Shown here in pieces: positions 8,643 to 28,500 of a DNA stretch of 64,000 nucleotides (positions are counted from its first letter, which is position 1; the number at the start of each line of letters is the position of its first letter). A program made the position numbers and the translations under genes. Below the pieces are notes generated by a model. The model had not been told where the DNA came from, did no database searches, and saw only the letters and a list, made by a program, of their open reading frames with translations. This DNA comes from a virus (Duplodnaviria > Caudoviricetes), in IMG/VR virus record IMGVR_UViG_2930337131_000001, positions 32,001 through 96,000 of that record. One strand, given 5' to 3'.

Positions 8643-8646
8643 GGGA

Positions 8647-9606: not shown

Positions 9607-9646
9607 GTGGCACCGCGGTGGGCGCCGAGACCTGCGTACGGTGAGG

Positions 9647-10307: not shown

Positions 10308-10595
10308 TTACGCCTTGGCCGGAGCCTTCACCGGCAGGATGGCGTCGATCGAGGTGTCCCAGGCGCGGCCGAACCACCGTGCGGCGTTGCCGAGTCGGCC
10401 GGGGAACATCTGCGCCACCAGGACGCCGGCGGCGATCGTCAGCGTGAGGGCCAGGTGCGCGAGGAACCAGCCCACGACTGCGCCGACAACTTCCGCCAGG
10501 AAGAGGAGAGTTGCCAGGGTAGGCGGGACGATGGCCGGGTGCGCGACGGCCAGGAGGCCGAACGCCCAGGCGAGAAGCTGCAGCTTGGCGCGCAT
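10308..10595 (-). CDS. Small membrane protein
   Basis: Mostly hydrophobic; GGAGG RBS. Confidence 0.65.
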   Translation of the reverse strand: MRAKLQLLAWAFGLLAVAHPAIVPPTLATLLFLAEVVGAVVGWFLAHLALTLTIAAGVLVAQMFPGRLGNAARWFGRAWDTSIDAILPVKAPAKA

Positions 10596-10596
10596 C

Positions 10597-10785
10597 TCAA
10601 CCCTCCTGCTGCTGGCCGTAGAAGCCGCTGGAGGGGTTGGTGGTGTCGGAGAGGTGGACTCGCCACCCGTCGGTGGTCTTCACCAGCGGGTCCTCTTCGG
10701 TACCCGGGTGACCGTCTGCCGCGCAGATGTTCCGCAGACCGTCGTGGTCGCGCTTCTGCTGGCCCGTGCTGATCCAGCCCGCCAT
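10597..10785 (-). CDS. Hypothetical protein, first gene of the leftward operon
   Basis: GAGGAG RBS. Confidence 0.6.
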   Translation of the reverse strand: MAGWISTGQQKRDHDGLRNICAADGHPGTEEDPLVKTTDGWRVHLSDTTNPSSGFYGQQQEG

Positions 10786-10810
10786 GGGGGAGCTCCTCAG
10801 TTCGTGGTCT

Positions 10811-10828
10811 GGGCGGTGCTCTCCGCCC
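10811..10828 (-). promoter_or_regulatory. AGAGCA-loop leader hairpin, copy 3
   Basis: Minus strand GGGCGG-AGAGCA-CCGCCC, just downstream of a TAGAGT -10-like hexamer (10839-10844). Confidence 0.6.
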
Positions 10829-10863
10829 TTCGAGGAAGACTCTACGCGGTTACTCGTCGGTAG

Positions 10864-10889
10864 CCGACAATAATCCCAATTGTTGTCGG
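10864..10889. promoter_or_regulatory. Inverted repeat in AT-richer divergent promoter region
   Basis: CCGACAATAAT-CCCA-ATTGTTGTCGG (11-bp arms, 1 mismatch). Confidence 0.5.
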
Positions 10890-10930
10890 TAATCTTGGCT
10901 CAACGTCAGAACTGCAACCCAGGGGGCACC

Positions 10931-11188
10931 ATGACGGCCAGTCGGCCAACCGACGTCGAAGAGGTCCGGGCCCAGGTGCTCGCCGCCTTCGGTCTCGCAG
11001 AAGACGACCCATGGGGTCAGGCGCTCGATGCGCTGTACACCGCGGCGGCCACGGACCGGGAGGCGCACCACACGCGCATCCTCGGCGAAGTCGACACCAT
11101 GGCCGAGGAACTGACGCAGACCCTGCCGCCGGAGCTGCGCGCCGCCGGCCTCCGCATTGCCTACGACACCGAAGGACTCCACGCATGA
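10931..11188 (+). CDS. Hypothetical protein
   Basis: AGGGGG RBS; first gene of a coupled rightward run. Confidence 0.6.
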   Translation: MTASRPTDVEEVRAQVLAAFGLAEDDPWGQALDALYTAAATDREAHHTRILGEVDTMAEELTQTLPPELRAAGLRIAYDTEGLHA

Positions 11189-11442
11189 ACCTCGAGCCGA
11201 TCCCGCCCGGCGCGATCACCGCGGGCAAGATCCCCTCCGGTGCCATCCAGAGCGGCGACGTCCTCGAGGACATCCGCAACCGGGAGCCGTACGCCGTCGA
11301 GGCCGTCATCCTCCACGCGCTCGCCGAGTTCAGCATGGGCGGCCCGCCCATGGGCAAGGACGAGGCCCGCCAGTGGCTGAGCCTCTACCTGCAGCAAGTC
11401 GCCGAAGGCCGCTCCCCCGTAGACCCCGGAGTACACGCATGA
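11185..11442 (+). CDS. Hypothetical protein
   Basis: ATGA overlap with upstream gene. Confidence 0.6.
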   Translation: MNLEPIPPGAITAGKIPSGAIQSGDVLEDIRNREPYAVEAVILHALAEFSMGGPPMGKDEARQWLSLYLQQVAEGRSPVDPGVHA

Positions 11443-11774
11443 ACTACGACGACGACCTCGAGGACCGCCTGGCGGCCGAGTACCAGAACCGGCAGCGCCA
11501 GACCGGTGACCTGGACTACATCCGCCGTTACTACGGGCTCGAGCGGCGCCACGGGATTCGCGTGGCGATCGGCGGCCGGATCCGGAGCAGCGGGCAGGAG
11601 GGGCAGATCGTCGACACGTCCGGCCACTACCTGATGGTGCAGTTCGACGGTGACGAGCAGCCGGTACGCCGTCACGTCACCTCGAACATGGAGTACGCCA
11701 CGGCGGCCGGATGGGTCGCGGCCACGCCCGTCCCCGACCCGTACGCCGCGGCGCCGGCCGGGGCCGCGCAGTGA
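11439..11774 (+). CDS. Hypothetical phage protein (SH3-like)
   Basis: DYIRRYYG...GGRI...GQIV...YLMVQFDG pattern. Confidence 0.65.
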   Translation: MNYDDDLEDRLAAEYQNRQRQTGDLDYIRRYYGLERRHGIRVAIGGRIRSSGQEGQIVDTSGHYLMVQFDGDEQPVRRHVTSNMEYATAAGWVAATPVPDPYAAAPAGAAQ

Positions 11775-12289
11775 CCGCCGTCGACGAGCAAATCGCGCTC
11801 GCCTTCTACGAGTTCATCCAGGCACGGTACGCCGACGAGCTGCGCGAGCAGTACCCGACGGCGGACAGCACCCCGGCCGTGGAGACGTACCGGGAGCAGT
11901 ACCGCGAGGCGCAGACGGAGCACCAGGCCCTCGTCGACGCGCTGCACCGCGGCGACCAGGAGCAGGCCGCAGACTGCCTCTGGGGGCTGCGCAACCAGGC
12001 GTCCAAGTGGAAGGCGCACCCCGACTACCCCGAGCCGATCTCCGACGGCACCATGCCCTGCCCTGTCCCGGCCCCCGAGACCGGGCACCCCTGCACGAAG
12101 CGGATCCCGAAGGGCCGGGCCGCATCGGAAGGGCACGGCGGCGGCCACTTCTGGCAGTCCCCCCGGGCGGCCGAGCTCGAGGCCCTCGGCGCGCACATGG
12201 ACTACGGCACCTTGCTGTCCGGTCAGCCCACGCCGTGGCACCTGCCCAAGGACTGCACGCCCGACTGCTGGAAGTGGAGCGACCGATGA
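11771..12289 (+). CDS. Hypothetical protein (DUF6221-like HPDY motif)
   Basis: FIQARYADE...WKAHPDY. Confidence 0.55.
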   Translation: MTAVDEQIALAFYEFIQARYADELREQYPTADSTPAVETYREQYREAQTEHQALVDALHRGDQEQAADCLWGLRNQASKWKAHPDYPEPISDGTMPCPVPAPETGHPCTKRIPKGRAASEGHGGGHFWQSPRAAELEALGAHMDYGTLLSGQPTPWHLPKDCTPDCWKWSDR

Positions 12290-13895: not shown

Positions 13896-15086
13896 ATGCA
13901 CGCTCTGCCTCAAGACCACACCGGGGTACGAATCGCGCGTCTCCGTCGGGAGCGCCATCTCACTCAGCAGGGTTTGGCCGACCTCTCAGGAGTCCCGTAC
14001 AACACCCTGACCAAGATCGAGCAGGGCAAGTACGCGGCCACGCCGCACGCGATTGCTTGCCTGGCCCGCGCTATGCGCGTGGAGGTCTCCACCATCATCG
14101 GGCAGCCCTACAAGGCCGAACTGCGCGCCGACGAACTGGACGTGTTGATAGCGCCGATCCGGGAGGCCCTGGACGTCTACGACCTGGGCGTTGACCCCGA
14201 CATCTCGGCCCGCCCGCTGCGGAACCTGCTGGAGGACTCCGAGAGCCTGTGTGCAGCCGTACGGGCCGGAGAGATCAAGCGGGCGGCCAGTGACGTCGCC
14301 GGACTGATCGAGGAGGCAACCACCGCGGCGCACCAGCACGGCAGCAGCGACGGATGGCTGATCCTCTCCTCCCTCTACCGCACGTCGTACGACGTGGCGA
14401 CGAAGCTGGGATACGCCGACCTGGCGCAGCTCTCCCTCGCCCGGCTGGACTGGGCCTCGCAGCGAGCGGGCAGCGCGGTGTTCGGCGGCGCGTACCAGTA
14501 CTTCCGCGCCCTCACCTACTTGCGGGAGGGGAAGTTCCGCACCGGGCAGCGCCTCGTCGACCTGGGCCTGCGCACCATCAGCCAGGCGGAGCCCTCACGA
14601 GAGCGCGACGTCGTAACCGGGCAGCTCCACCTCGGCGGGTCCGTGATGGCCGGCCGGGCGCACAACGAGTCCCAGGCCATGGACCATCTCGCCGAGGCCG
14701 ACACCATCGCGGCCCGCACGGGCGAGTCCCCGCGGGTGCTCTGGATGGCGTTCGGCGAGACCAACGTCCGAGTGCACCGGGTGTCCGTCCTCGCCGAGCT
14801 CGACAAGTACGACAAGGCCGTCGCGGCGGCCGACAACCTCCTCATCCCGGCCGACTGGCCGAAGTCCCGGACGAGCCACCACTGGGCTGAAGTCGCCCGC
14901 GCGCAGATGTGGACGGGCAAGCTCGATGCGTCGTTCGCCAGCCTGCTCAAGGCGCGGAAGACAGCTCCGCAACAGGCGAAGTACCACCCGATGGTGCGGG
15001 AGACGTACGCCAGTTTGGAGGCCGCACACCGCCGGCTTCCCGACACCTTCCTCTCGTACGGCAGTTGGCTGGCCAGCCAAGTCTGA
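13896..15086 (+). CDS. XRE-family HTH regulator with C-terminal helical (TPR-like) domain
   Basis: IARLRRERHLTQQGLADLSGV...LTKIEQG; architecture typical of actinobacterial XRE proteins. Confidence 0.88.
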   Translation: MHALPQDHTGVRIARLRRERHLTQQGLADLSGVPYNTLTKIEQGKYAATPHAIACLARAMRVEVSTIIGQPYKAELRADELDVLIAPIREALDVYDLGVDPDISARPLRNLLEDSESLCAAVRAGEIKRAASDVAGLIEEATTAAHQHGSSDGWLILSSLYRTSYDVATKLGYADLAQLSLARLDWASQRAGSAVFGGAYQYFRALTYLREGKFRTGQRLVDLGLRTISQAEPSRERDVVTGQLHLGGSVMAGRAHNESQAMDHLAEADTIAARTGESPRVLWMAFGETNVRVHRVSVLAELDKYDKAVAAADNLLIPADWPKSRTSHHWAEVARAQMWTGKLDASFASLLKARKTAPQQAKYHPMVRETYASLEAAHRRLPDTFLSYGSWLASQV

Positions 15087-15102
15087 CGCTGCGTAAACCC
15101 TT

Positions 15103-15138
15103 GGCCCTAACTGGTATGAACTCATGCCAGTTAGGGCC
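15103..15138. promoter_or_regulatory. 36-bp near-perfect palindrome (operator or recombination site)
   Basis: GGCCCTAACTGGTATGA-AC-TCATGCCAGTTAGGGCC, 17-bp arms, 1 mismatch. Confidence 0.6.
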
Positions 15139-15189
15139 TAGTTGTGGCCCCACCATGTCGTCACTGGCCATTTCGACATGGAGCCGACC

Positions 15190-15693
15190 ATGACGACTTA
15201 CCTTGCGGACCAGGTGCGCACCCGTCGAAGCGCGCCCGGAACCGCCCCAGAGCCGAGAAGCCCCGGAGACACCCGGACAGCGCTCGACATGTCCATCGAG
15301 CGCCGACCCGATCCGGAAACCGGCGGCCTGTCCGCGGCAGATGCCGCCTGGCCCCGACGCCTCCGCCGTATCGTCCGCGCCAGCCTCATCCACTGGGGCC
15401 ACCCCGGCATGGTCGATACCGCGCTACTGCTCGTCACCGAACTGGCCACCAACGCACTTCAGCACGGCAGCGGCCCCGCGATCGGAGTCCGCATCTTCCT
15501 CCAGGGCGACCACTGTGTGATCAAGGTGACCGACACCGCCGGGTCCCCCACCCGTCCCCGGCTCCGCGCCGCCAGCCCCACCGACGAGAGCGGCCGCGGC
15601 CTCTTCCTCGTCGAGGCCCTGGCCGCGGAGTGGGGCGTCAGCGACGACGGCACGCGCGTCTGGTGTCTCTTCCCCGTAGGGGGCACGTCCTGA
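15190..15693 (+). CDS. HATPase_c anti-sigma-factor-like ATP-binding protein
   Basis: LLVTELATNALQHG, VTD, ESGRGLFLV, GTRVW. Confidence 0.88.
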   Translation: MTTYLADQVRTRRSAPGTAPEPRSPGDTRTALDMSIERRPDPETGGLSAADAAWPRRLRRIVRASLIHWGHPGMVDTALLLVTELATNALQHGSGPAIGVRIFLQGDHCVIKVTDTAGSPTRPRLRAASPTDESGRGLFLVEALAAEWGVSDDGTRVWCLFPVGGTS

Positions 15694-16157
15694 TGCCCTC
15701 CACCGCCTGCGTCCGCCGCGGCAGCGAGAACGCGCCCCGCTGGAATCATGACGTCGAGCCCGCGCAGCGCCCGGAAGAGGCCGCAGTGCTGGACGCCCTG
15801 GCGAAGTTACGGGCCTGGAGCCCCTACAACGGGGATGACTGGCTGGACGACGTCGCGGATGCCCTCGACACCGTCGCACCGGCCGAAGACCAGGTCGAGG
15901 AACTCGCCCAGCGCTTACGCGGGTACCTGATGCAGCTCGTCGCCATCGCCGCCGGCGACGAAACCGAGAAGCGCGACGCGCGCGCGGCACTCCGCATCAC
16001 CCGGGCCCGGGACATACGAGAAGCAGAGATGCCGGGCGACTACCGCCAGGCCGTCGGCCACCTGCGCCAAATGGGATGGGCCGTGAACGAGCTGCTGGAC
16101 CTCCTCGTCGAACTCGGCTGCGTGAAGTCCCCGGACTCCCTGAGCGAGGCACTGTGA
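15693..16157 (+). CDS. DUF6415-like helical protein
   Basis: EELAQRLRGYLMQL motif; usual context next to these ATPases. Confidence 0.55.
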   Translation: MPSTACVRRGSENAPRWNHDVEPAQRPEEAAVLDALAKLRAWSPYNGDDWLDDVADALDTVAPAEDQVEELAQRLRGYLMQLVAIAAGDETEKRDARAALRITRARDIREAEMPGDYRQAVGHLRQMGWAVNELLDLLVELGCVKSPDSLSEAL

Positions 16158-16627
16158 ACGCCCCAGAGACCTCGCTCGCCGTTCCGGCCGAAGCCGAGTT
16201 GGCCATCGCTCGCTCCCTCTCCACCGACCTCCCCGGCGTCCCGTACGCCGTTCAGGGAGCGCGGTTCTGGGTTCGGATGTCCGTCACGGCCCTGTGCTGG
16301 CAGGGCGACATCCTGCAAGCGGTCGAGGTCATCAGCCGACTCGTGGACAACGGTGTCCGCCACGGCATGCCCGCCGACGTACCCAAGGACGAGCGGCGCC
16401 TGGTTCTGTCCGCTGCCGTCGCCGAGACCGGCGAGCTCCTCATCGACGTGTCCGACCTCAACCCCGCGTTCCCCGACTTCGACAGAGCGGTGGCGGGAGA
16501 GAAGGGGCGCGGCCTGTGGCAGGTCGCCCGCCTGGGCGCGCGCATCATCCGGTTCCTGCCGCACGAAGGGGCCGGGAAGACCGTACGGGCCGTACTGCCT
16601 CCTGGACCGGTGAACCCCTATGCCTAA
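16154..16627 (+). CDS. Second HATPase_c-like ATP-binding protein
   Basis: SRLVDNGVRHG, IDVSD, GRGLW, GKTVRA. Confidence 0.75.
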   Translation: MNAPETSLAVPAEAELAIARSLSTDLPGVPYAVQGARFWVRMSVTALCWQGDILQAVEVISRLVDNGVRHGMPADVPKDERRLVLSAAVAETGELLIDVSDLNPAFPDFDRAVAGEKGRGLWQVARLGARIIRFLPHEGAGKTVRAVLPPGPVNPYA

Positions 16628-17315
16628 GCAGCTCCATTGGGGGGACCTGCGCGTCCCCTACATCACGGCCTGGAGCGCCGAGGTCGTTCCCCAGCCCGAT
16701 GTCGTCCGGGTCACCCGACGCGGCGGCGAGGGCATCGGGTACGAGGACGAGGACCCCGTCATCGATCGCCGGCACGAGGCCTTGTGGGTGCGTTCCGGCA
16801 TGGCCCGCGGCCGCGGTGCGCCCGACTTCAGCCGCATCAACTCGCTCCGGCAGAAGCGGGCGATGCGATACGACCTGTGCCAGCTCTGCGGGTTCACGGT
16901 TCTGGGCACGCGGGACGACGAGCGAACCCTGTGCCTCATGGGTGGCGACAGACCGATCGCGGAGGGGGAGACGACGACGGCACCCCCGGTTCACCCCGCG
17001 TGCGCCAAGTACTCGATCGAGAACTGCCCGCCTCTCCGCCGCAAGCACGCGGCCGCGCTCGTCGACGTCAGCCGCCTGTGGGGCGTCGCTGGTGTGGTCT
17101 TCGACCCGGTCACGATGCAGCCGCTTCCCAGCACCGGATCGCGACCTGGCGACCTGGACCACGTTCACGTCGCGGACAAGGCCATCCGGTGGACCCTGGC
17201 CAACTTCACCGTGCACAGCCTCCATGGCGTCACACCCGTGTCCACGGATGAGCTGTACGCCATGGCTGAGCGCGAGCCCGGCCTACCCGACGGTGAGCGC
17301 GTGAGCGCCCCCTAG
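16620..17315 (+). CDS. Conserved actinobacterial Zn-binding hypothetical protein
   Basis: VPYITAWS...RQKRAM..LCQLCG...PPVHPACA...CPPL. Confidence 0.7.
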   Translation: MPKQLHWGDLRVPYITAWSAEVVPQPDVVRVTRRGGEGIGYEDEDPVIDRRHEALWVRSGMARGRGAPDFSRINSLRQKRAMRYDLCQLCGFTVLGTRDDERTLCLMGGDRPIAEGETTTAPPVHPACAKYSIENCPPLRRKHAAALVDVSRLWGVAGVVFDPVTMQPLPSTGSRPGDLDHVHVADKAIRWTLANFTVHSLHGVTPVSTDELYAMAEREPGLPDGERVSAP

Positions 17316-17424
17316 ATCCTGCCCGGCGGCCCGGTGCCGATATGGCCCTGGCCCTCGGGCAGCACAACCCCGGCGCGCAGAGACCTGCCTTTCCCCTCCC
17401 CTGGGCAAGTCCCGACGCCGGCAT

Positions 17425-17472
17425 GTCGGCCCTGCAGTCCAGCGATGCCACGCCCCGGACTGCAGGGCCGAC
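17425..17472 (+). other. 16-bp perfect-stem hairpin in the radical SAM operon leader
   Basis: GTCGGCCCTGCAGTCC-N16-GGACTGCAGGGCCGAC. Confidence 0.55.
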
Positions 17473-17563
17473 GCCCGGGTCGCGGTACCCGGTCCGCCGA
17501 CTCCCCTGCGGGCGGCCGGTGCCGCGGCCCGAACCATCACCCCGACGCTCAACGGAGGAAACT

Positions 17564-18541
17564 GTGACCGACCTTGGATTGCCGAGCGTGCCCCGTCAGC
17601 AGCACAGGGAGCTGGGCGGAGGCATCGGGTACGCCTTCAACGGACAGCACTTCGACGCTCCGGCAGACGCCAGCGTCGCGGACATCGCGAGCACACTCGA
17701 CGCGCCGCTGTCCGTGATCGTGCAGGTCACCAAGCGCTGTGACTTCGACTGCTCGTTCTGCTCCGAGATCCTGCAGATGCCGGATCCCACCCTCGAGCAG
17801 CTCGACACCATGCGCCGGAACCTGGCAGGAGTCAGCCGGGTGTTCCTGTCCGGCGGTGAGCCCCTGATGCGCAAGGACTTCGGGGAAGTCGTCGACATCT
17901 TCGCCGACCACCACATTGTCGCCGTGCCCACGAACGCCACCCACGCCCTGGACCACGCGCGGAACATCGCCGGGAAGATCTCGTACGCCAACGTCGGGTT
18001 CGAGGGCCCCCGCGCCGCCTTCAAGCGGGTCCGCGGCGACTACGACAAGACGATGGCCGGCGTCCGCGTTCTGCAGGAGCACGGCATCCCCCTCGCCCTG
18101 TCCGCCGTCGTCTACCGCTCCACCCTGTCGGTGCTGCCGTACACCGTGCAGATCGCCGACGTCCTGGACGCCACGAAGGTGAAGCTGATCCTGCCCCTGC
18201 GCAAGGGCAACGCCCTGAACCTCGCCGACCACGAGTTCATCACCACCGAGGAAGCGGAGACCACGTTCGCGCGACTCAAGGAGCAGCGCGCCGAGATGCA
18301 GTGGTCCCCGGCGCTGCGGCTGACGGCCTGGACGCCGCAGAACGAGGGGCACATGCTCGTCGTGGAACCGAACGGCATCGTGAGGGCCTGGCCGGTCTAC
18401 GACGCCCCGGACCTCTGGGAGAACCTCGGCAACATCCTCGAGGAGCCCATCACCGAAATCTGGAAGCGGTACCGCTTCAAGGAGAACCACATCTCCAAGT
18501 ACGTCGGCCGCTCGATCCACGCGGTCACGCAGGGGGTGTGA
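17564..18541 (+). CDS. Radical SAM enzyme with a Cys-less SPASM/Twitch-like C-terminus
   Basis: CDFDCSFC, SGGEP, TNA; C-terminal VVEPNGIVRAWP...LGNILEEPITEIW; GTG 17564 with GGAGG RBS. Confidence 0.9.
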   Translation: MTDLGLPSVPRQQHRELGGGIGYAFNGQHFDAPADASVADIASTLDAPLSVIVQVTKRCDFDCSFCSEILQMPDPTLEQLDTMRRNLAGVSRVFLSGGEPLMRKDFGEVVDIFADHHIVAVPTNATHALDHARNIAGKISYANVGFEGPRAAFKRVRGDYDKTMAGVRVLQEHGIPLALSAVVYRSTLSVLPYTVQIADVLDATKVKLILPLRKGNALNLADHEFITTEEAETTFARLKEQRAEMQWSPALRLTAWTPQNEGHMLVVEPNGIVRAWPVYDAPDLWENLGNILEEPITEIWKRYRFKENHISKYVGRSIHAVTQGV

Positions 18542-18542
18542 C

Positions 18543-19331
18543 GTGCTCGAACGCACCAACCTGGGATGGCCCGAGACGCCATACGGCTCGGTCACCAGCC
18601 CCGTGCAGAAGCCCGGGACATGGTTGACCGGCATCTTCCTGCTCTGGGGCGAGGCCGGCGACGACCCGATCCTCATGGGCGCCGCTGCGGTGTTCATGAA
18701 GATCCACCGCACGCAATCGCTACCCGTCTCCGCTCCGCTCATGAACTTCGGGTACAGGGTGCTGATCCCGCAGGCCCTGGGCGAGACCGCGGCGATCGTC
18801 CGGCAGCTCGACACCGTGCTCGTCCAGGCCCGCCGCAAGTCGCAGATCCTCGCCTGGCACAACGGCGCCGACGACCTGCACGTCCTGCGGCAACTCCCCC
18901 GGGCCGACGACGAGCCGCGCCACCCGGGCGTGACCGCCATCGCCGACGCCTGGAAGGACCGCAGCACCCGCGAACGGGGCACCACGCTGTGCGTGGACAC
19001 CAGCCACGATCTCGGACCGGCCGGACTGATCAGCGACACCGCAACAGCGCACGGGCTCGAGCCGCTCAAGTCGTTCGCCGGCCAGCAGCAACAGGCCAGC
19101 GCGCAGGAGGCGTGCGACGCCCTCACGGAGGACCGGGACGCAGCGTTCTCGCCGGACGCCCTGGCCGGCAGTGCCCTGTCCTCAGCCCTCGCTACGGCAC
19201 TGATGGGAGGTAAGCACACCGGCCGGCTGCACTGGGACGAGCCGCTGAGTCTCTTCCAAGCACTGTCCGAAGCCGCGTGGGAGGCGGCCCCCTCACTTCT
19301 CGGCGGCGTGGCGTCGGTACGGAGCGAGTAG
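18543..19331 (+). CDS. Exonuclease-fold (DEDD-like) protein, probably inactive paralog of the next gene
   Basis: LAWHNGADDLHVLR and VDT motifs; lacks ExoI DxE. Confidence 0.55.
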   Translation: MLERTNLGWPETPYGSVTSPVQKPGTWLTGIFLLWGEAGDDPILMGAAAVFMKIHRTQSLPVSAPLMNFGYRVLIPQALGETAAIVRQLDTVLVQARRKSQILAWHNGADDLHVLRQLPRADDEPRHPGVTAIADAWKDRSTRERGTTLCVDTSHDLGPAGLISDTATAHGLEPLKSFAGQQQQASAQEACDALTEDRDAAFSPDALAGSALSSALATALMGGKHTGRLHWDEPLSLFQALSEAAWEAAPSLLGGVASVRSE

Positions 19332-19392
19332 CGTCCCGGCGGGGCCGTGCGCACCGGGCGTGCGGCCCCGCCCTACCCCAGGAACACCACAC

Positions 19393-20253
19393 ATGATCAT
19401 CACGAGCAACTTGCCCAGCACCCGCTCCCTGCGACCCCCTCCCCTGCACTCGGGAGATGTGCGGATCGCGTCCGTCGACGTTGAGTGGACGAAGAACTAC
19501 CGGATCAAGAACGGGCAACGCCCCTTCTGCTTCAGCGTCGCCTGGCTCGACCTGCCTGCCGACGGGACACCGGACCTGGCGGACGTCCCGTTCGAATGGA
19601 CCAGCCTGTACGTGGATGAGCCCGACGAGATGGATGAGCTCATCCGGCGCGCCGCGCAGACGCTGTCCGCGGCCGCGGAGACCGCCACGATCATCACCGG
19701 GCACCAGTTCTGCAGCGACCTGGCCGTCCTGCGGTCGAACGCTCCCGCGGACGCGCTGCAGGAGCTGGAGCGGGCCCGTGAGCAGTGGAGCGGCCGTCGC
19801 ACGGCCGACCCCACCGCGAGCCACTACGTCGACACCCGGTATGACGCCGGGCACCTGCTCACCGGAGCGTCGCGCCGCCTGGTCGACGTGTGCACGGAGC
19901 TCGGCCTGGACGTCACCCAGCCCGAGCTCAGCAAGACGTCCATGCCCGAGTGGCACCGCCGTTGGCTCAACGACGGCAACGAGGAGGGCCGGGAGCGCGT
20001 GAGCGTCCTCAACCTCCGGCACTCCCTCTCGACCGCCTACGTCGCCGCCCGCAGCGCCGGACTCGCGGTGTGGGCCGCCGACGGCCTGAACGTCAACCGA
20101 GTCATCGCCGAGGGCGCAAAGGGCGCCTGGGCCTGGCTCGAGAACCCCGTCTTCACCAACCTTCTGGAGGTCCCGTGTCCGTCCGCGAGTGCCGCGTTAT
20201 CGCCGTCGAAGGCACCCAGGCCGCAGGCAAAACGACGTTCGTCCACGCCCTGA
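19393..20253 (+). CDS. DEDD/RNase H-like 3'-5' exonuclease-fold protein
   Basis: ASVDVEW (ExoI), ITGHQFCSDLAVL (ExoII), YVDT, RLVDVCTELGL. Confidence 0.6.
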   Translation: MIITSNLPSTRSLRPPPLHSGDVRIASVDVEWTKNYRIKNGQRPFCFSVAWLDLPADGTPDLADVPFEWTSLYVDEPDEMDELIRRAAQTLSAAAETATIITGHQFCSDLAVLRSNAPADALQELERAREQWSGRRTADPTASHYVDTRYDAGHLLTGASRRLVDVCTELGLDVTQPELSKTSMPEWHRRWLNDGNEEGRERVSVLNLRHSLSTAYVAARSAGLAVWAADGLNVNRVIAEGAKGAWAWLENPVFTNLLEVPCPSASAALSPSKAPRPQAKRRSSTP

Positions 20254-20786
20254 CCGCGCACCTTCGAGAGCAGAGCATCGGCGTCACCTGCACCGGCGAG
20301 CCCGCGCGCACCAGCCCGTTCATGGAGGACATCGTCCTTCACGGGACAGGGCCCTTCGACCTGGTCGCGGAGCTCGACCTGTTCGCCCAGCACTTCACCG
20401 TGCCGCTGCGCGCCGCCCGGCACCACCAGGTCCTCATCACCGACAAGACCCCCGCGAACGTCCTGGCCCTGGCCGGTCTGGTCCTCGACCCCACCGAGCC
20501 GGGCACCGCTTCCGTCCTCGCCGCGGCGGAGGCGATGTGTCGGGCCTGGATGCCCATTGCGTACGACGCGATCGTGTACTGCCGGGACCGCTACGACCAG
20601 AAGGCCGGCGGCGACCGCATGAGGGAGAAGGTCCTCGGCCTCCAGGACGACGCGGACACCGCCATCTACGACGCGTGCCGCGCCACGGGCGTGCCGATGC
20701 TCGAGATGCCCACGGGCCTGACCGTGTCTGAGCGTGTCTCGTGGACTATGCAACGCGTTGGAGACATGGGGCTGATCGCTGTCTGA
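20175..20786 (+). CDS. P-loop nucleotide kinase (dTMP kinase/AAA_28-like)
   Basis: IAVEGTQAAGKTT, EPAR, ITDKT; GTG 20175 with GGAGG RBS. Confidence 0.75.
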   Translation: MSVRECRVIAVEGTQAAGKTTFVHALTAHLREQSIGVTCTGEPARTSPFMEDIVLHGTGPFDLVAELDLFAQHFTVPLRAARHHQVLITDKTPANVLALAGLVLDPTEPGTASVLAAAEAMCRAWMPIAYDAIVYCRDRYDQKAGGDRMREKVLGLQDDADTAIYDACRATGVPMLEMPTGLTVSERVSWTMQRVGDMGLIAV

Positions 20787-20841
20787 TCCCGGCTAGAGTC
20801 CCCTACCGGCAAGCGCCCAACCGGTCGGAGGACAACGCACC

Positions 20842-21285
20842 GTGCCCCAACTGCCCGTGAACGACGTAATGCTCATCCTCGAGCGCGACGGGGCCGTGTG
20901 CCTTGCCGAGCGGCAGGGCACCGGCTACGCCGACGGGAAGCTGAACCTGCCGTCCGGGAAGCTCGACCCGGGCGAGGACGTGTTCGACGCCGCGCTCCGC
21001 GAGCTCGAGGAGGAGACCGGCGTCAAGAGCACCCGGGACGCCCTGCGGATCGTGCACGTGATGCACTTCCGCAACCCCGAGGGGGAGCCTCGCGTGGGCT
21101 GGTTCTTCGTCGTCCAGGATTGGGAGGGGGAGCCGCGGAACATGGAGCCGCACAAGTGCGCCGGCCTGTCCTGGCACCCCGCGGACCACCTTCCCGACAA
21201 CACCGTCGAGTACAACGCGCTGGGGATCGCCCACTACCTCAAGGGTGAACAGTTCTCCGTGCACGGGTGGGACAGGTCCGCGTAG
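20842..21285 (+). CDS. NUDIX hydrolase (MutT/NUDT15-like)
   Basis: SGKLDPGEDVFDAALRELEEETG; NMEPHKC. Confidence 0.9.
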   Translation: MPQLPVNDVMLILERDGAVCLAERQGTGYADGKLNLPSGKLDPGEDVFDAALRELEEETGVKSTRDALRIVHVMHFRNPEGEPRVGWFFVVQDWEGEPRNMEPHKCAGLSWHPADHLPDNTVEYNALGIAHYLKGEQFSVHGWDRSA

Positions 21286-21377
21286 AGCCGGGGGTGTAAC
21301 AGATCACGGCCGTTGACGTTCGGGCAGTGAAGGGGGTTGGCCTTTATGTCAACCCCGCAGTGACCCGGAGGAACGGT

Positions 21378-21983
21378 GTGACGACCGCGACAGCTCCCAT
21401 CTCGCCCGAGGCCGGCCGCTCTCATCTGCAGGAGAGCCTGTTCTCCTGGCTCGAGCCCGAGCCCGCCCCGAAGACGCGCGTAGCCAAGCCCACCGGCGAG
21501 CCCGCGCGCTCGCCGGTGGCCGAGGCGTTGATGCTCGAGGAAGCGGCCCCCGCCACCGCGCCGGTGGTCACGGCCGAGACGAAGACGCTCGAGGAGTCCG
21601 CCCAGGAAGAACCCCCGGTCGCCCCGGCCCCGCCTAAGAAGCGGGACCTGTCCCACGTGTGGGTCGTGGCCGCAGAGATCGAGGTCAACCCGAAGATCGC
21701 GAGCGTCGCCGACTACCGCGGCAGCTTCAAGACCACCGAGGGGCAGCGTGTCGACGCGCTCGAGGTGTATTGCAAGGGCTGCCGCCGCCCGTACGACGAG
21801 GTCAAGGGCCGGGACTGCGCCGAGAAGATCGACAACAAGCACCTGATCGGCGGGGACCAGAGCGTCCGCGCGAAGCGGAAGATCCCCGTGCCGCCCGCGA
21901 ACGCGAAGATCATCCCCGGCGGCACGATCAACCGGCGCGGCCTCGGCGCCTACGTCTCTGGAGTGTCCCGCCCCAAGCGCTGA
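21378..21983 (+). CDS. Hypothetical protein with CxxC and basic C-terminus
   Basis: GGAGG RBS; EVYCKGCRR. Confidence 0.7.
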   Translation: MTTATAPISPEAGRSHLQESLFSWLEPEPAPKTRVAKPTGEPARSPVAEALMLEEAAPATAPVVTAETKTLEESAQEEPPVAPAPPKKRDLSHVWVVAAEIEVNPKIASVADYRGSFKTTEGQRVDALEVYCKGCRRPYDEVKGRDCAEKIDNKHLIGGDQSVRAKRKIPVPPANAKIIPGGTINRRGLGAYVSGVSRPKR

Positions 21984-21989
21984 GCAGCA

Positions 21990-22020
21990 CGCGACACTAA
22001 CCGCGGCCGCTGTCCATGGT
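21990..22020 (+). promoter_or_regulatory. Late-promoter motif 1 (leaderless)
   Basis: CGCGACACTAACC-N12-CATGGT-N7-GTG. Confidence 0.7.
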
Positions 22021-22027
22021 GCGCGGC

Positions 22028-22420
22028 GTGACTACTCAGCAACCTCAGCCGTCGATCGTCGATGACCTGACCGACCCGGACATCATCGGCCCTGCGGGTC
22101 CCGACGCGAAGATCGGCCGGGAGGCCTTCGGGCTTCTCCTGCTCTCGTTCGGTGTGCTCGGCGGCCTCGGTGCGCTGGGCGCCCTGCACTGGGTCGCCGG
22201 TCTGTCCGCAGCTCTCATCGGCCTGTGCGCCAGTGGCGTCGTCGTCCGCCGCAACAGCAAGCAGCGATGGCAGCAAGACGCCGGCGCCATGGTCGCCTTC
22301 GCTGCCTACGCGGGGCAGACCGCCCTCCTGTTCTACCTGCTGCAGCCGCTCGGGTGGCTGGCCGTCAGCGCCCTCGGCATAGCCGCCGGCCTGTGGCTGT
22401 CCAGCGATGAGGGGGCCTGA
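22028..22420 (+). CDS. Membrane protein preceding the portal
   Basis: Several hydrophobic segments; TGATG coupling to the portal. Confidence 0.7.
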   Translation: MTTQQPQPSIVDDLTDPDIIGPAGPDAKIGREAFGLLLLSFGVLGGLGALGALHWVAGLSAALIGLCASGVVVRRNSKQRWQQDAGAMVAFAAYAGQTALLFYLLQPLGWLAVSALGIAAGLWLSSDEGA

Positions 22421-24903
22421 TGCCCCGCCAACTCTTCCCCGGGCTCCGCGGCCTCCTTGTCCCACGAGGCGCCGTGGAGCCAGCAGCCGCGCCCGCGCCC
22501 GTCGAGACGAAGGACCTGCTCGCAGGGGGCGTCTACACGTCGATGACGTACGCCGGCGTCACGAACGTGTGGGGCACCCCGGGCCGTGCGGACGGCTGGG
22601 ACCTCGAGCGCGTCATCGTCGAGGGCTACGAGCGTTCCATCTGGACCTTTAAGTCCGTGGAGGCGATCAGCAAGCACGCCTCTACCCTGCCCATCCAGAT
22701 CGGCCGCGGTGGCGACGAGCGTGAATTCGCCGAGGTCCTCAAGGACCATCCGCTGCTGAAGTTGCTCAACCGCAAGGCCAACCCGCTCGAGACCGGCGAT
22801 GTCTTCAAGAAGCGGCTGAGCGCCATGCTGCTGCTGAGCAAGAAGGGCGTGTTCGTCGAGAAGACGAAGAACCGGCGCGGAGTGCTGACCCGGCTCGACC
22901 TGCTGCCCCCGGACCGCGTCAACATCATCCCGGACGTCGAGAACTCCGCCTATGTGAGCCACTTCGAGCTCACGGAGTACAACGGCCGCATCCGCGAACT
23001 GCCGCCGGAAAAGGTCATCTGGATCAGGGACCCGCACCCCACGGACCCGTTCTGCGGCGTGACTCCGCTCGAGGCCGCCGGGCTGTCGGTCGACCTGGAC
23101 GTCAAGGCCCGCACCTACAACATCTCCTTTATCGACAATGACGGCCGCCCTGGCGGCATCGTCGGTATCGACCTGGACGGCGTGGACCAGGCAGAGGTCA
23201 AGCGGATCCAGAAGCGGCTCGAGCCGGGCGCGCACAACGCCGGACAGCTCACCCTCGTGGGCACCGGGCCCGGCGGTGTCACGTACGTCGACACCTCGGC
23301 CCGCCCCCGCGAGATGGCATACGAGACGCTCGCCAGCACCTCGAAAAACGAGATCCTCTCCGCGTTCGGTGTGCCCGAGAGCGTGATCGGCAACGCCAGC
23401 GAGCGGACGTTCGCGAACGCCGACCGGGAGGAGTACACGTTCTGGGCCCACACGGAGCTTCCCCACCTCAACCTGCTCGCCTCGGCGTTCGACCCGGACC
23501 TGTCGGACGACTGGGTGATCCGGTTCGACACCTCCCGCATTCAGGCCCTGGAGTTCCCCCGCCGCCAGGCCCGTGAGGAAGCGCGCAAGGAGTGGGAGTC
23601 GGGCCTCATCACCATCGACGAGTACCGGGTGGCGGCCGGGCGTAAGCCGTTCAACACCCCGCAGTCCCGCGCGCTGTGGATCAGCCCGCAGAAGGCACCC
23701 GTCCCCGCCAACGCCCAGGACGCGGCCGCCCTCGGCCTCTCCGACCCGGGCGGCGCTCCGGGCGCGGGCGGTACCCCCGGAGCAGGCCCGGCCGCCGGAC
23801 CGCCCACAGCCGACGGGGACCAGTCCGCCGCCGCGGCGGTCGCTGGGGCCCGCACCGACGACCCCGGTCCGACCGCGGCCGACGACGTAGCCGCAGCCCG
23901 CGGGCAAGCGCCCTCCGAGCCGGCCGCCGGTTCGGACTCGCCCGCGGCCGACGCCGTGGCGGACGCCCGCGCGGACGTCACCGACGACGGCCCCGGGGAA
24001 GCAGCCGGCGACGTCGCGGCCGCGCGCGCCAGCACGGTGCAGCCCGAGGCCGGACCCGCGGCCGAGGAAGTCGAGCGGGCACGCGCCCAGCTCGAGACCA
24101 AGGCACTCACCGGCGACGACAACGGGTTCGAGGTCACCGACGCCGACTTCGACACCCTCGCCGCGGCCATCAAGGCAGCCCTCACCGCGCTTCTGGCGCG
24201 CCAGGAGGGAGTCATCGTCGCCCGGATCCACGCCCCGAAGATCCGCAAGCACACGCGGTTCTGGGAGCCGGAGAACGAGAACGACACCCGCGGCGGCGAC
24301 GCCAACCTCGACGAGGACCGCGTCGTCAGCGCGGCCCGCTGGGCGGAGGAGACCACCAACACCCTGACCCCGATCCTGCAGCAGGCCGCGGCCGCCACCG
24401 CTCGCAAGCTGAGCAAGGCAGTCACCGGCACCGAAACGGTGCCCCCGGCCGCCGTCGCGCCCGCGCTCGTCACCGCGGCGCACGCCGGTGAAGCGATGAC
24501 CGCGTTCCTCACCGAACTCGCCGTCGTGCTGCACCAGGCCCAGGCCGATCCGAACCTCGACCTCGACACGCTGAAGCACGTGGTCGGCGGCTTCTACAAC
24601 TCGGCCGGCCCCGACCTCGCGGCCCGGGTCGCGGAGACCTGCGCCGTCTCGACCATCAACGGGGCCGCGGACGCCGCAGCAGAGAACGCCGGGCCCGGAG
24701 TCGTCCGGACGTGGATCACTCGCCAGGACGACCGCGTACGGCCCGCGCACCGCGCCCTCCAGGGCAAGACGCTGCCCGTCGGCACGCCGTACGAGATCGA
24801 CGGCGCCCAGCTCCGCTACCCCGGCGACCCGTTCGCTCCGCTCGCCCTGACGATCAACTGCCGTTGCCGTCTCCACTACGCCACAGACGAGGACGTGAAC
24901 TGA
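22420..24903 (+). CDS. HK97-type portal protein fused to a C-terminal MuF (gp7-like) domain
   Basis: HPLLKLLNRKANP, LPPDRV, NDGRPGG, AFGVP, GLITIDEYR; C-terminal RTWITRQDDRVRPAH...YPGDP...INCRC. Confidence 0.9.
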   Translation: MPRQLFPGLRGLLVPRGAVEPAAAPAPVETKDLLAGGVYTSMTYAGVTNVWGTPGRADGWDLERVIVEGYERSIWTFKSVEAISKHASTLPIQIGRGGDEREFAEVLKDHPLLKLLNRKANPLETGDVFKKRLSAMLLLSKKGVFVEKTKNRRGVLTRLDLLPPDRVNIIPDVENSAYVSHFELTEYNGRIRELPPEKVIWIRDPHPTDPFCGVTPLEAAGLSVDLDVKARTYNISFIDNDGRPGGIVGIDLDGVDQAEVKRIQKRLEPGAHNAGQLTLVGTGPGGVTYVDTSARPREMAYETLASTSKNEILSAFGVPESVIGNASERTFANADREEYTFWAHTELPHLNLLASAFDPDLSDDWVIRFDTSRIQALEFPRRQAREEARKEWESGLITIDEYRVAAGRKPFNTPQSRALWISPQKAPVPANAQDAAALGLSDPGGAPGAGGTPGAGPAAGPPTADGDQSAAAAVAGARTDDPGPTAADDVAAARGQAPSEPAAGSDSPAADAVADARADVTDDGPGEAAGDVAAARASTVQPEAGPAAEEVERARAQLETKALTGDDNGFEVTDADFDTLAAAIKAALTALLARQEGVIVARIHAPKIRKHTRFWEPENENDTRGGDANLDEDRVVSAARWAEETTNTLTPILQQAAAATARKLSKAVTGTETVPPAAVAPALVTAAHAGEAMTAFLTELAVVLHQAQADPNLDLDTLKHVVGGFYNSAGPDLAARVAETCAVSTINGAADAAAENAGPGVVRTWITRQDDRVRPAHRALQGKTLPVGTPYEIDGAQLRYPGDPFAPLALTINCRCRLHYATDEDVN

Positions 24904-25543: not shown

Positions 25544-25574
25544 CGCGACGCTAACCGCGCGCGATGTGCATGGT
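25544..25574 (+). promoter_or_regulatory. Late-promoter motif 2 (leaderless)
   Basis: CGCGACGCTAACC-N12-CATGGT-N7-ATG. Confidence 0.7.
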
Positions 25575-25581
25575 CCGCGCC

Positions 25582-28500
25582 ATGCTGAATCGCCCCGCTG
25601 CTGCGCACGCTGAGTTGCAGGACCTGAGTGACGGTCTCGAGGTCAAGGCCGCCCGCCGTTGGAACCCCGCCCTGCATCCTCGCGACAGCAAGGGCCGATT
25701 TATCGAGACCGGCGGCATCGTCCGCCTGTGGGGAGGCGACCTCGCGCGCGTCATGCGCGCCCTGCCCAACGACCGCATCCTCGTGCAGGACCAGACCGGC
25801 CCGAACGAGTTCAACGGCCGCAGGCACACCACCAGCGCCAAGTGGGTGTCCATGGTGGCCCGCCCCGACGGCTCCGCGCCCACTGACAACGAGCACAAGG
25901 TCGAGGCGGAGGACGAGAAGCGGGACAAGGACGCCCGGCGCGGCAACGGCGTTGTCCACGACGACGCCGGCGACCCCGACACCCCCAACGACGCTCACCC
26001 CGTCGACGACCGCGGCCGCCCGATCGGCGAGGACGACCACCCCGTCGGGCCCCGCGAGAACGACGACCAGGACGAGCCCGAGCACGGCAGGCACCCGGTC
26101 AACGTCCGCGCCCTGCCCAACGAACCCACTTCGGGCGGCAGCCGCTTCCAGGACACGGCGGCAGTCCGTCAGCACTTCCTCGACCTGGCCGACCGGCCCG
26201 ACACCCGGCCGGAGATGGCGCAGTTCCTGCGCTCCGTCGCCACTGACGACGACCTGCGTATCGCGGGGGACCTGGCCGTCCTCCGCGACGACTCCACCGG
26301 CCGCTGGTACCTGACGGCGACCGGCACCGGTCAGCGCATGGACCTTGCCGGGGACTTCGCCACCCCCGACGAGGCCAGTGAGTTCGCCCGCCACCTCCGG
26401 ACCACCGCCCCGACCAAGGGCGCTGCGATCCGCGCGTTTGCTCGGGGATTCGACTTCTCCAACCCCGACCTTGACGCCGAGGCGCGCACCTGGCGCTCGG
26501 ACAGGGACGAGAACATCGCGACCGCCATCAAGCGGGCCCGCGGGGAGTTCGACGCCTCCCGCCCCAATCCCGACACGGCCCACGCCCCGCACCCGGACGC
26601 TGGTACGCCGGAGACGGTCAGCCGAGACCAGCTCCAGCCTGGTGACCGCGTCAGGGTGACCGTGGGCCGCGGTGACATCGAGTGGCCGGACAGCACCCGC
26701 GGCCAGGACAAGCCGGAGACGGTCACCGTCGAGGGCACCGTCGCGCCCACCTACCGGCCCGGCCCGGGAACCCAGGGCGCGCCCCTCGTCGACGTCACCC
26801 TGACCCGCCCGGACGGCGTCGTGATGGCATCCAACGACTCCGCCCACGTCCGGCGGATGCCCAGCCAGGCGGACCGGCTCGGGCACACGGACGGCCACGC
26901 CCCGGAGGAACGGCGCGCCGACCACGTCCGCGTCGGAGACGTCATCTCCCGCGGCAACTTCGGGCACGTCGTCACCCGGATCAACCGCCACCAGGGCGGC
27001 CGGACCTTCACGACCCGCAACCTCGGCGGCCGCGGCGAGGTCGACCAGTTCGGTACGCGCCCCGACGCCATGCTGTCCGTCGTCCCGCGCGGCAGCCGCC
27101 GACCGGAGGACGTCCTGCGCGACGTCCCCAGCCACACGCAGCAGCACCCGAACAGCACGGATGCCCGCGGTGCGGCCAGGATGATCGTCCGGGACTGGGG
27201 CCGGGTCAACGAGCTCGCCGGGCAGCAGTGGCCGGACGGGGCGCCGGACGAGTTCCGCACCCTGGCCCAGCACATGCAGAACGTCACGGAGGACCCCAAG
27301 GGCCCCGAGGGCTACCAGCAGAACGCCGACGCGATGCGCGGCGCCCTGGACGTCCTCCACGGGCTGGACTCCGACAACGTCAGCCAGGACATGGCGCGCT
27401 CCCTTCACCGGCTCGAGGAGGGCCTGGACTACAACGCCGACCGGTTCGAGGCCGACGCCCGCGCGATCCAGGCCCGCAGGGCGGCCGCGGCCGCGAACGC
27501 CCCGGACGCCAACGCGCCCGAGACCAACGCGCCCGCGAGCCCGGAGCCTGCCGGCGAACCGCTGCAGCACGATTGGTCCCCCGACAACCTGGTCACCCTG
27601 ACCATGCCGGAGGCGCTCGCGGACTTCCTCAACGTGGACGAAACCGCGGCGATGGAGGACCCCGACACCCGTAAGGCACTCACCGAAGCCGTCCGCGGCC
27701 GCAACGGCACGCTGAAGGTCACCGCGCCGATCGAGACGCACCGGGCCCTGCTCGAGTGGGCGTGGACGCTCGCGGGCGGTGAAGGACTGGACTCCGACCC
27801 GAAGGAGGTCCGGGCCCACCGCAACTACACCAAGCGCGTTGACGAGGCCGCGGCCAAGCTGGAGGAGGCCCGCGCGGCGAAGCCGGACGGCGACGCCCCA
27901 GACGCGAACGTTCCCACCCCGGACGCCGGTGGCAGCACGCCGGATGCACCGTCGGCCAACGCCCCGGACGCCGGCCAGGGCACCCCGGACGCTGGCACCC
28001 CGGACACGGTCACCATGTCGCCCGACGAGGTGAACGCGCCCGCGGCCGCGGCGCACGGAGCGAAGGCCCCGTCGTCGATGGACGACGGCGAGATCCGCGA
28101 CGAGATCGTCTCCCTGATGGAGCGGGAGATGGCCAACGGCGGGGAGCTGTCGGGAGTCGACCGCACCCGCCTCCAGGTCCTCGAGGCGGAGGAGGCCCGC
28201 CGCGCCGGCCGTGCGCCGAAGCGCGAGGACAAGCCGAAGCCGAAGCCCGCGGAGGAGCCCGGCGGTCTGTTCGACGTCGCCCCCGACGAGCAGCAGCGGT
28301 TCGTTGCCGACCCGAACAACCCGGACGACCTGGCGGACGACCCGCTGGGCACGCCGGACATGTTCGCCGACCACGAAGGCCGCGACACGTCCCGGCTGCG
28401 GCCCCCGCAGTCCCGCAAGCCTGCCGACTTCAAGCCCGGCGACCGGTTCGTCGACACCGACGGGCGCACCCACACCGTGCGGGACGAGCCGATCCGGACC

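Follow-up and report, generated by a model that had tools for sequence, protein, structure and literature searches.

A mobile, optional and nucleotide-centred five-gene radical SAM cassette in a tailed phage genome and in actinobacteria

Genes and proteins of the cassette

The window analysed here is a stretch of 64,000 nucleotides from a tailed phage genome (positions 32,001 to 96,000 of the viral record IMGVR_UViG_2930337131_000001), and the subject of this study is a cassette of five genes at positions 17564-21285 of this window, which encode, in this order, a radical SAM enzyme, two proteins that we call exoA and exoB, a P-loop kinase and a NUDIX hydrolase (Table 1). As an earlier note on this DNA had described, the five genes are co-oriented, all on the plus strand, and tightly packed: 1 nucleotide (nt) separates the radical SAM gene from exoA, 61 nt separate exoA from exoB, and 55 nt separate the kinase gene from the NUDIX gene, with exoB and the kinase gene overlapping by 79 nt. 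Scans of positions 15000-22500 for promoters and terminators gave no signal above the shuffled expectation. To survey the cassette, a collection of 185,579 species genomes, with one genome per species, was scanned by pattern for relatives of the radical SAM enzyme. This gave 205 candidate stretches, of which the best 80 were analysed as loci, and 69 of the 80 contain enough downstream DNA for the gene order to be evaluated. Because the identical order of all five genes is found in 47 of the 69 evaluable loci, the arrangement is far beyond chance, and the co-occurrence in other genomes on which the earlier note had made its proposal depend is thus observed. As detailed below, the cassette is mobile, optional and centred on nucleotides.

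The GTG start codon of the radical SAM gene agrees with the M-T-x-L-G beginning of the homologous proteins, and the motifs previously noted in its product, i.e. C-D-F-D-C-S-F-C, S-G-G-E-P and K-V-K-L-I-L-P-L-R-K-G, are all present. In an alignment of 18 homologs with 60-90% identity, the only invariant cysteines are C59, C63 and C66, which form a single CxxxCxxC motif, and SGGEP as well as many lysine and arginine residues are also invariant. The protein has no cysteine after residue 66, that is, none beyond the cluster motif, so the claim that its tail lacks cysteines for an auxiliary cluster holds. Its closest relatives by sequence are PqqE, SkfB and NirJ/Ahb-type enzymes; no NCBIfam model matches it above the cut-off, the top rows being of the PqqE, NirJ, Ahb and MoaA types, and no QueE model is among the best 25 of its 36 NCBIfam matches. 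No similarity to spore photoproduct lyase was found among its listed solved relatives. Membership in the SPASM/Twitch peptide maturases was considered and rejected: in addition to the missing cysteines, Pfam SPASM has no match in the protein, and the conserved block of the loci contains neither a recurrent small open reading frame (ORF) that could encode a precursor nor a PqqD-like partner.

The structure of the radical SAM enzyme was predicted with a predicted local distance difference test (pLDDT) score of 79.4, and the top structural matches of the model are viperins, with a Z score of 22.2 and a root-mean-square deviation of 2.7 Å over 255 aligned residues (model residues 45-315). The earlier note had proposed a comparison with viperin, MoaA and BlsE; viperins indeed rank first, but are tied with SuiB and SkfB, and BlsE and MoaA are found behind them, among lower-ranked matches that also include PqqE, anSME, DesII and AbmM. 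The model thus suggests a viperin-like closed barrel with a C-terminal extension, and the cysteines suggest a single cluster. Both the alignment and the model contain a conserved extra N-terminal beta element of ~45 residues.

The two proteins encoded next had been described as DEDD-like, a claim that stands for exoB, which has an exonuclease fold and keeps the DxE motif, and is overstated for exoA, in which this motif is lost. The exoB model (pLDDT 87.2) resembles the exonuclease domains of Pol alpha and archaeal family-B DNA polymerases (PolB), with Z scores of 13-14.2 over 170-187 aligned residues, and also RNase T in a Foldseek search, and the atlas features of exoB lead to DNA_pol_B_exo2/RNase_H_2 clusters. 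The invariant residues of exoB include D29, E31, H104, D109, D147, D151, D165, H188 and H210; D29-x-E31 provides the DxE of the first exonuclease motif, and H104...D109 is a candidate for a further one. Judged by its model, exoB has an RNase H-like exonuclease fold of the family-B-polymerase type. On the other hand, exoA has no match in Pfam, PHROG, NCBIfam or the PDB sequences, and comparing the exoA and exoB sequences with solved structures gave nothing meaningful for either. Only six alignment columns of exoA are invariant, with no DxE among them, and its atlas features lead to RNase_H_2/PolB-exonuclease-like clusters. The two proteins are paralogs, as they are linked by BLASTP (E 0.003), by one shared BLAST cluster, and by cross-matches of their hidden Markov models (HMMs) of 1e-10 to 1e-20. 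Because the DxE motif is lost, exoA is probably a nuclease-dead paralog of exoB. It is also the most constant partner of the radical SAM gene, adjoining it in 67 of the 69 evaluable loci, and this adjacency together with the 1-nt spacing suggests that exoA works with the radical SAM enzyme.

The Pfam scores in Table 1 are to be read against cut-offs of 29.5 bits for Radical_SAM, 21.1 for NUDIX, 27 for AAA_28, 27 for Thymidylate_kin and 22 for RNase_H_2. The fourth protein carries the P-loop G-x-x-x-x-G-K-T-T and matches PHROG 761 'thymidylate kinase' with an E value of 4e-7; a profile built from 28 homologs has thymidylate kinases as its nearest solved relatives. Its Pfam score does not place it in the Thymidylate_kin family proper, and the kinase likely belongs to the thymidylate-kinase/deoxynucleoside-kinase fold class. 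The last protein is labelled 'MutT/NUDIX' in PHROGs; its nearest solved relatives, with E values of 4e-11 to 3e-9, are MutT/NUDIX family proteins, 8-oxo-dGTPases and Nudix hydrolase 1, and the NCBIfam models for MutT and for pyrimidine (d)NTP diphosphatase each match it below their thresholds.

Table 1. Coordinates of the cassette genes and of other features of the phage genome (aa, amino acids)
Feature	Position	Strand	Description
Radical SAM enzyme	window 17564-18541	+	325 aa; GTG start; Pfam Radical_SAM 48.9 bits
exoA	window 18543-19331	+	262 aa; paralog of exoB without DxE; no Pfam match
exoB	window 19393-20253	+	286 aa; predicted stand-alone family-B-polymerase-type exonuclease fold; RNase_H_2 18.2 bits, sub-threshold
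P-loop kinase	window 20175-20786	+	203 aa; Pfam AAA_28 28.9 bits; Thymidylate_kin 18.6 bits, sub-threshold
MutT-like NUDIX hydrolase	window 20842-21285	+	147 aa; Pfam NUDIX 65.8 bits
Second small replacement zone	window 15653-17539		DUF6415 gene end, 183-aa HATPase-like gene, g231
Long ORF after portal-MuF	window 25564-37560	+	3,998 aa; no Pfam match, E up to 0.001
Protease-NUDIX fusion	window 38862-41063	+	733 aa; Peptidase_S78 prohead serine protease + NUDIX
Poly-gamma-glutamate hydrolase	window 47183-47818	+	Pfam 196.5 bits; among tail genes
FtsK/SpoIIIE-like protein	window 1059-3065	-	plasmid-type
DUF2637 protein	phage genome 101431-102738	-	plasmid-type
ParA-like protein	phage genome 120084-120926	+	plasmid-type
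MazF/PemK-like toxin	phage genome 115049-115366	+	plasmid-type
DpdA	phage genome 16-978	-	7-deazaguanine DNA transglycosylase family; outside the window
PAPS-reductase-family protein	phage genome 1045-2145	-	adjoins DpdA; outside the window
C5 cytosine DNA methylase	phage genome 14928-17027	+	outside the window
dCTP-deaminase-like protein	phage genome 28494-29078	+	outside the window

Distribution of the cassette and of its radical SAM relatives

The window is part of a viral record that is complete at 128,053 bp and has direct terminal repeats, and not of a Streptomyces chromosome; that the cassette is cargo of a phage had escaped the earlier note. The phage is large and temperate, and its genome is collinear with that of Streptomyces phage Gilgamesh (129 kb), which was isolated on S. 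lividans. Genes 39-43 of Gilgamesh are the same five genes, with 79-90% protein identity (88% between the radical SAM enzyme and the product of gene 39), and are annotated as three hypothetical proteins, a thymidylate kinase (gene 42) and a MutT-like pyrophosphohydrolase. In DNA identity to Gilgamesh, the cassette segment (85%) exceeds the other aligned segments (73-83%). A literature search, which covered few subscription journals, found no paper on Gilgamesh or on the gene combination of the cassette. On its upstream side, the cassette is preceded by the genes of a tyrosine integrase, a 396-aa helix-turn-helix regulator and a DUF6415 protein, as well as by two small genes. On its downstream side, it is followed by g218 and the genes of a membrane protein, a portal-MuF fusion, the 3,998-aa ORF, a fusion of protease and NUDIX, and the capsid. 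The end of the DUF6415 gene, the 183-aa HATPase-like gene and g231 together have no DNA match in Gilgamesh, and the DNA on both sides of them matches; this segment is a second small replacement zone.

To compare sister phages, we collected 48 viral contigs with a gene for a relative of portal-MuF, 26 of which were evaluable, i.e. have at least 5.2 kb upstream of the portal gene. In these Gilgamesh-like contigs the g218-portal junction is conserved, and just upstream of it is a hypervariable slot that is filled by at least eight alternative gene sets. Because only three of the 26 evaluable contigs have the cassette in this slot, it is optional, mobile accessory cargo in this phage lineage, and presumably not a part of the core life cycle. 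Non-orthologous versions of the cassette occupy the same slot in three contigs (L189 at 2640-6900, L190 and L197). They encode a COG1533-type radical SAM protein with its own CxxxCxxC motif, whose family is named 'radical SAM protein' by NCBI and 'DNA repair photolyase' by JGI, an ExoX/DnaQ-type DEDDh exonuclease (E 4.7e-16 to PDB 4fzx), a P-loop kinase-like protein (E 1.8e-6 to the kinase HMM) and, in L189, a NUDIX protein that is 81% identical to that of the cassette; one more protein of the set is, we presume from its motifs, an aldo-keto reductase relative. Further cargo of the slot includes a 1,209-aa protein (L201 at 818-4447 on the minus strand, and L204), the N-terminus of which has motifs that presumably make it a relative of the DNA polymerase III alpha PHP domain, and also large proteins (L222, L223 and L226) that presumably resemble lanthipeptide/thiopeptide dehydratase-type enzymes.

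Beyond the phages, the loci come from Streptomyces, Kitasatospora, Micromonospora, Amycolatopsis, Actinomadura, Nocardia and Frankia, from a Lentzea plasmid, and from metagenome-assembled genomes labelled Solirubrobacterales and Dormibacteraeota. The radical SAM, exoA and kinase genes are found together in 65 of the 69 evaluable loci. The flanks of the loci are unrelated to one another, and in 30 actinobacterial loci with annotated flanks they contain TraG/TrwC conjugation genes, Replic_Relax, DUF2637, integrases, transposases and, in one case, a plasmid, with portal homologs near four of the 80 loci. The cassette moves as a unit among many actinobacteria. A few flanks encode other nucleoside enzymes, namely a HIT protein with a nucleoside 2-deoxyribosyltransferase-like protein (L019), a PfkB protein with a deoxyribosyltransferase (L060), and QueD/QueE-like proteins with a phosphoribosyltransferase (L069). 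As for recurrent neighbours, 20 of the 80 loci (flanks of L002-L081) encode Methyltransf_19 proteins at a distance of no more than 10 kb from the cassette, without a fixed position, and HTH_31+DUF5753 regulators, DUF6879 and HATPase_c_2 proteins also recur in the flanks at variable positions.

An exhaustive search found 3,700 cluster representatives that match the radical SAM enzyme at E values up to 0.001, and the full-length relatives with 25-48% identity have the same architecture. Some are fusion proteins, in which the radical SAM domain is joined to a borderline MazG-like domain (P0122; 22.4 bits, cut-off 22), to PfkB (P0205) or to an AP_endonuc_2 TIM barrel (P0153). In 20 metagenomic loci of a distant branch of the superfamily, the neighbours include Thymidylate_kin proteins in 13 loci, a further such kinase recognised by HMM, an adenylate kinase in one case, AP_endonuc_2 in 11 loci, HhH-GPD glycosylase-like proteins in eight, as well as HD proteins and UDG. 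A DEAD helicase of 960 aa is present in four of these loci and matches HamB of the Hachiman system in both loci that were tested (2e-42 in L099 and 1.7e-34 in L103). Single cases are Ham1, LigD phosphoesterase and PrimPol in L111, and RNase_T in L112. The nucleoside triphosphate (NTP) pyrophosphatases associated with the superfamily hence come from three unrelated families: NUDIX in the cassette, the borderline MazG-like domain of P0122 and Ham1 in L111. The recurrent theme of the superfamily is a radical SAM enzyme with a nucleotide kinase, accompanied by NTP pyrophosphatases and by enzymes with DNA ends or lesions as their targets, both of which are interchangeable.

Two metagenome contigs of the distant branch (L103 at 3110-12146 and L107 at 3149-12087) contain a co-directional cluster of seven genes, which encode an unknown 280-aa protein, the 960-aa helicase, the radical SAM enzyme, an HhH-GPD-like protein, a thymidylate kinase, an AP_endonuc_2 TIM barrel and an HD protein that weakly matches dGTPase. 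Searching plasmids by tblastn with the radical SAM enzyme of the window and with P0157 returned only PqqE/NirJ-type or lone radical SAM genes, and no kinase or NUDIX partner was found beside the radical SAM gene in the three plasmid regions that were inspected; a radical SAM protein of a Klebsiella plasmid matches the HMM of the distant family (3e-35) and stands alone. When P0188 was used as the query of a protein search, the relatives reached were DPANN/nanoarchaeal, and not from Enterobacterales.

Candidate functions and known relatives

The earlier note had proposed a pathway to an unusual nucleotide, of which the nucleotide substrate is the part well supported by context, i.e. by the thymidylate-kinase-like (TMK-like) kinase and the MutT-like NUDIX protein. 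The same is indicated by proteins related to the radical SAM enzyme, some of which are fused to MazG-like or PfkB domains and others encoded beside thymidylate kinases, an adenylate kinase and Ham1. By analogy with the known systems discussed below, we tentatively favour the reading that the five genes are a mobile module that may quite possibly make a toxic or non-canonical (deoxy)nucleotide, from which the NUDIX protein and the exonuclease would protect the carrier. The viperin-fold, single-cluster radical SAM enzyme would alter the sugar or the base of a nucleotide, and the TMK-like kinase would either supply its phosphorylated substrate or drive the product to the di- or triphosphate; the MutT-like NUDIX protein would hydrolyse the toxic triphosphate to the monophosphate, and the polymerase-B-type exoB would strip the analogue from 3' DNA ends, with the putatively nuclease-dead exoA as a partner subunit. 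Such a combination of weapon and immunity could arm a lysogen or a plasmid carrier against superinfecting phages or rival bacteria. In favour of this reading are the fixed gene order between unrelated flanks, the optional place of the cassette in its phage lineage and its higher DNA identity to Gilgamesh, the viperin matches of the radical SAM model and the missing auxiliary-cluster cysteines, the kinases, NTP pyrophosphatases and DNA-end or DNA-repair-type enzymes found with the superfamily, and the known defence genes next to some copies, including the HamB-like helicase of the distant loci.

The earlier statement that the locus matches no system that could be named is too strong, as thmABC and the pairs of viperins and kinases share its logic. 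In Photorhabdus asymbiotica, thmABC is reported (PMC12691670) to encode a radical SAM enzyme, an AbmG-like kinase and a nucleoside triphosphatase that together lead to 4'-thiothymidine, which enters DNA; its triphosphate is efficiently incorporated by polymerases without proofreading, and the triphosphatase of thmABC alone confers resistance. Both systems are compact units of a radical SAM enzyme, a kinase and an NTP hydrolase with variable flanks, a likeness in gene content, but the cassette adds two exonuclease-fold genes and is set in Actinomycetota and phages. Viperins, which are reported to be often linked to kinases of the TMK superfamily (bioRxiv 10.1101/2023.09.13.557418), resemble the cassette enzyme in being single-cluster radical SAM proteins with a closed barrel and a C-terminal extension, as far as the model of the cassette enzyme suggests these, in having a nucleotide kinase encoded next door, and in their mobile, conflict-associated setting; unlike them, the cassette enzyme fails the viperin profile, has the extra N-terminal beta element and is joined to exoA. 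The albomycin enzymes AbmM and AbmG are likewise a radical SAM enzyme and a nucleoside kinase, and act, as described in PMC12691670, on a cytidine nucleotide sugar. AbmM (PDB 8wm2) is a much weaker match than the viperins (profile E 6e-6 over the N-terminal core; Z 15.3), and belongs to a large antibiotic cluster instead of a five-gene mobile cassette. Stand-alone PolB-type exonucleases (DNA_pol_B_exo2/RNase_H_2) and RNase T are like exoB in their fold and in the DxE of the first motif, but exoB scores below the Pfam cut-off and exoA has no DxE.

Several results weigh against a module of poison and immunity. The PADLOC models of prokaryotic viperins (pVips) match no more of the radical SAM enzyme than its N-terminal core (2-110 of 257 positions at E 5e-8, and 5-88 of 262 at E 5.5e-6), and generic radical SAM enzymes of unrelated genomes reach 1e-20 to 1e-30 against the same model, which is unspecific, having matches in four of 14 control genomes; viperin membership by sequence was thus rejected, since the partial match is weaker than those of generic radical SAM enzymes. 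In the structural comparison, the peptide-modifying SPASM enzymes SuiB and SkfB (Z 21.5-21.7) are less than one Z unit behind the viperins, and the kinase is weakly TMK-like, with its Pfam score sub-threshold and solved relatives at E 1.3e-3. Both presumed protectors appear to be dispensable: the NUDIX gene is not at its usual place in 10 of the 69 evaluable loci, lying inverted nearby in two, and exoB is missing in eight Frankia-type loci (the remaining four loci are partial in other ways). The signal of a defence island is weak too, with known defence genes beside only three of the 30 actinobacterial loci, i.e. Cas3 (L025), QatA (L062) and DrmB with DrmC (L065). Finally, the 'DNA repair photolyase' versions in the sister-phage slot fit a repair function equally well.

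That function would be the repair of DNA or the sanitation of nucleotides, where the radical SAM protein reverses or processes a lesion or a damaged nucleotide, the exonuclease trims 3' ends, the NUDIX protein purges the pool and the kinase recovers the monophosphate, to the benefit of phage or host DNA that has to survive in dry, irradiated soil. The partners of the radical SAM enzyme, a MutT-like NUDIX protein and a PolB-type exonuclease, are indeed classic house- and end-cleaning enzymes, its distant relatives are encoded beside HhH-GPD, AP_endonuc_2, UDG, LigD phosphoesterase/PrimPol and Ham1, and the sister-phage slot combines its photolyase-named protein with an ExoX/DnaQ-like exonuclease, a kinase-like protein and NUDIX. 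However, a repair function would be expected to be inherited vertically and to be widespread, but only the 205 candidate stretches were found in the species genomes, plasmids, conjugative elements and phages carry the cassette between flanks that are unrelated, spore photoproduct lyase is not among the listed solved relatives, and a HamB-like helicase and other defence genes are beside relatives, so that we regard this explanation as unlikely. Somewhat more doubtful is a precursor route for the hypermodification of phage DNA, which would shield it from restriction: the NUDIX protein and the exonuclease would provide deoxynucleoside monophosphates (dNMPs), the radical SAM enzyme would modify a dNMP and the kinase would return it to the pool. 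In phage T4, hydroxymethyldeoxycytidine is made through a pyrophosphatase, a modifying enzyme and a dNMP kinase, and this textbook order is the one that the cassette would follow; DNA modification is also provided for elsewhere in the phage genome, by the genes of DpdA, of a PAPS-reductase-family protein, of a C5 cytosine methylase and of a dCTP-deaminase-like protein. Against such a route speak the three carriers among the 26 sister-phage contigs, the chromosomal, plasmid or conjugative location of most copies, without phage structural genes within 10 kb and with portal homologs as scarce as noted above, and the lack of a dedicated polymerase or restriction partner in the conserved block or the examined flanks.

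NUDIX enzymes hydrolyse aberrant NTPs, and this knowledge of the family as well as the residence of the cassette in a phage would suit a role in counter-defence, in which the NUDIX protein and the exonuclease destroy chain terminators of the host, e.g. 3'-deoxy-3',4'-didehydro-NTPs (ddhNTPs), and the radical SAM enzyme and the kinase rebuild or divert nucleotides. A precedent is a viral DEDDh exonuclease that was reported to remove ddhCMP from RNA (PMC9415739). We nevertheless consider this role very improbable, as it leaves nothing for the radical SAM enzyme to do, the majority of the copies are in cellular genomes and plasmids, and relatives are encoded beside host-type defence genes. It is hardly credible that a peptide or a cofactor is the substrate of the radical SAM enzyme, with its nucleotide-enzyme neighbours there by coincidence: its best sequence relatives are PqqE, SkfB and NirJ/Ahb-type enzymes, and SuiB and SkfB are tied with viperins in structure, but the enzyme has no cysteines for an auxiliary cluster, no recurrent precursor ORF or PqqD-like partner accompanies it in the conserved block, the neighbourhood is fixed in the 47 full-order loci, and the fusions join it to nucleotide or sugar enzymes.

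The reading of a toxic-nucleotide module with self-protection can be made more specific, in a form that we think somewhat unlikely and offer as a conjecture. In this form, an undescribed family of viperin-fold radical SAM enzymes would, together with a TMK-like kinase, make a DNA-directed replication poison, which may be, for example, a 3'-blocked or sugar-altered deoxynucleotide; exoB, exoA and the NUDIX protein would confer a proofreading immunity, and the set would be traded among actinobacterial phages, plasmids and conjugative elements as an exclusion weapon. If this were true, the cassette would encode a new natural nucleotide analogue and embody a new principle of self-protection, namely excision by a dedicated stand-alone proofreading exonuclease, in a phage-borne module that is widespread in antibiotic-producing actinobacteria. 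Furthermore, both nucleotide-based immunity (viperins) and the nucleoside antibiotics (4'-thiothymidine) would gain a chemical class, and a radical SAM superfamily of the size reported above would gain a function.

Other genes of the phage genome

The genome of the phage contains several further genes whose coordinates are listed in Table 1. The DNA-modification-type genes are outside the window, with DpdA ~49 kb from the cassette, and QueD/QueE-like genes are near the cassette in one of the 30 actinobacterial loci (L069). The plasmid-type genes, for FtsK/SpoIIIE-like, DUF2637, ParA-like and MazF/PemK-like proteins, are of kinds that are commoner in the conjugative elements and plasmids of actinomycetes. 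The fusion of a prohead protease with NUDIX, which belongs to the head-assembly block, provides a second NUDIX domain of the phage; it shares only the NUDIX box with the NUDIX protein of the cassette, and is not its close paralog. The 3,998-aa ORF directly follows the portal-MuF gene, and its counterpart in Gilgamesh, gene 48, is annotated as 'hypothetical protein' and is 74-83% identical in DNA over the part that was compared. A gene for a poly-gamma-glutamate hydrolase is located among the tail genes.

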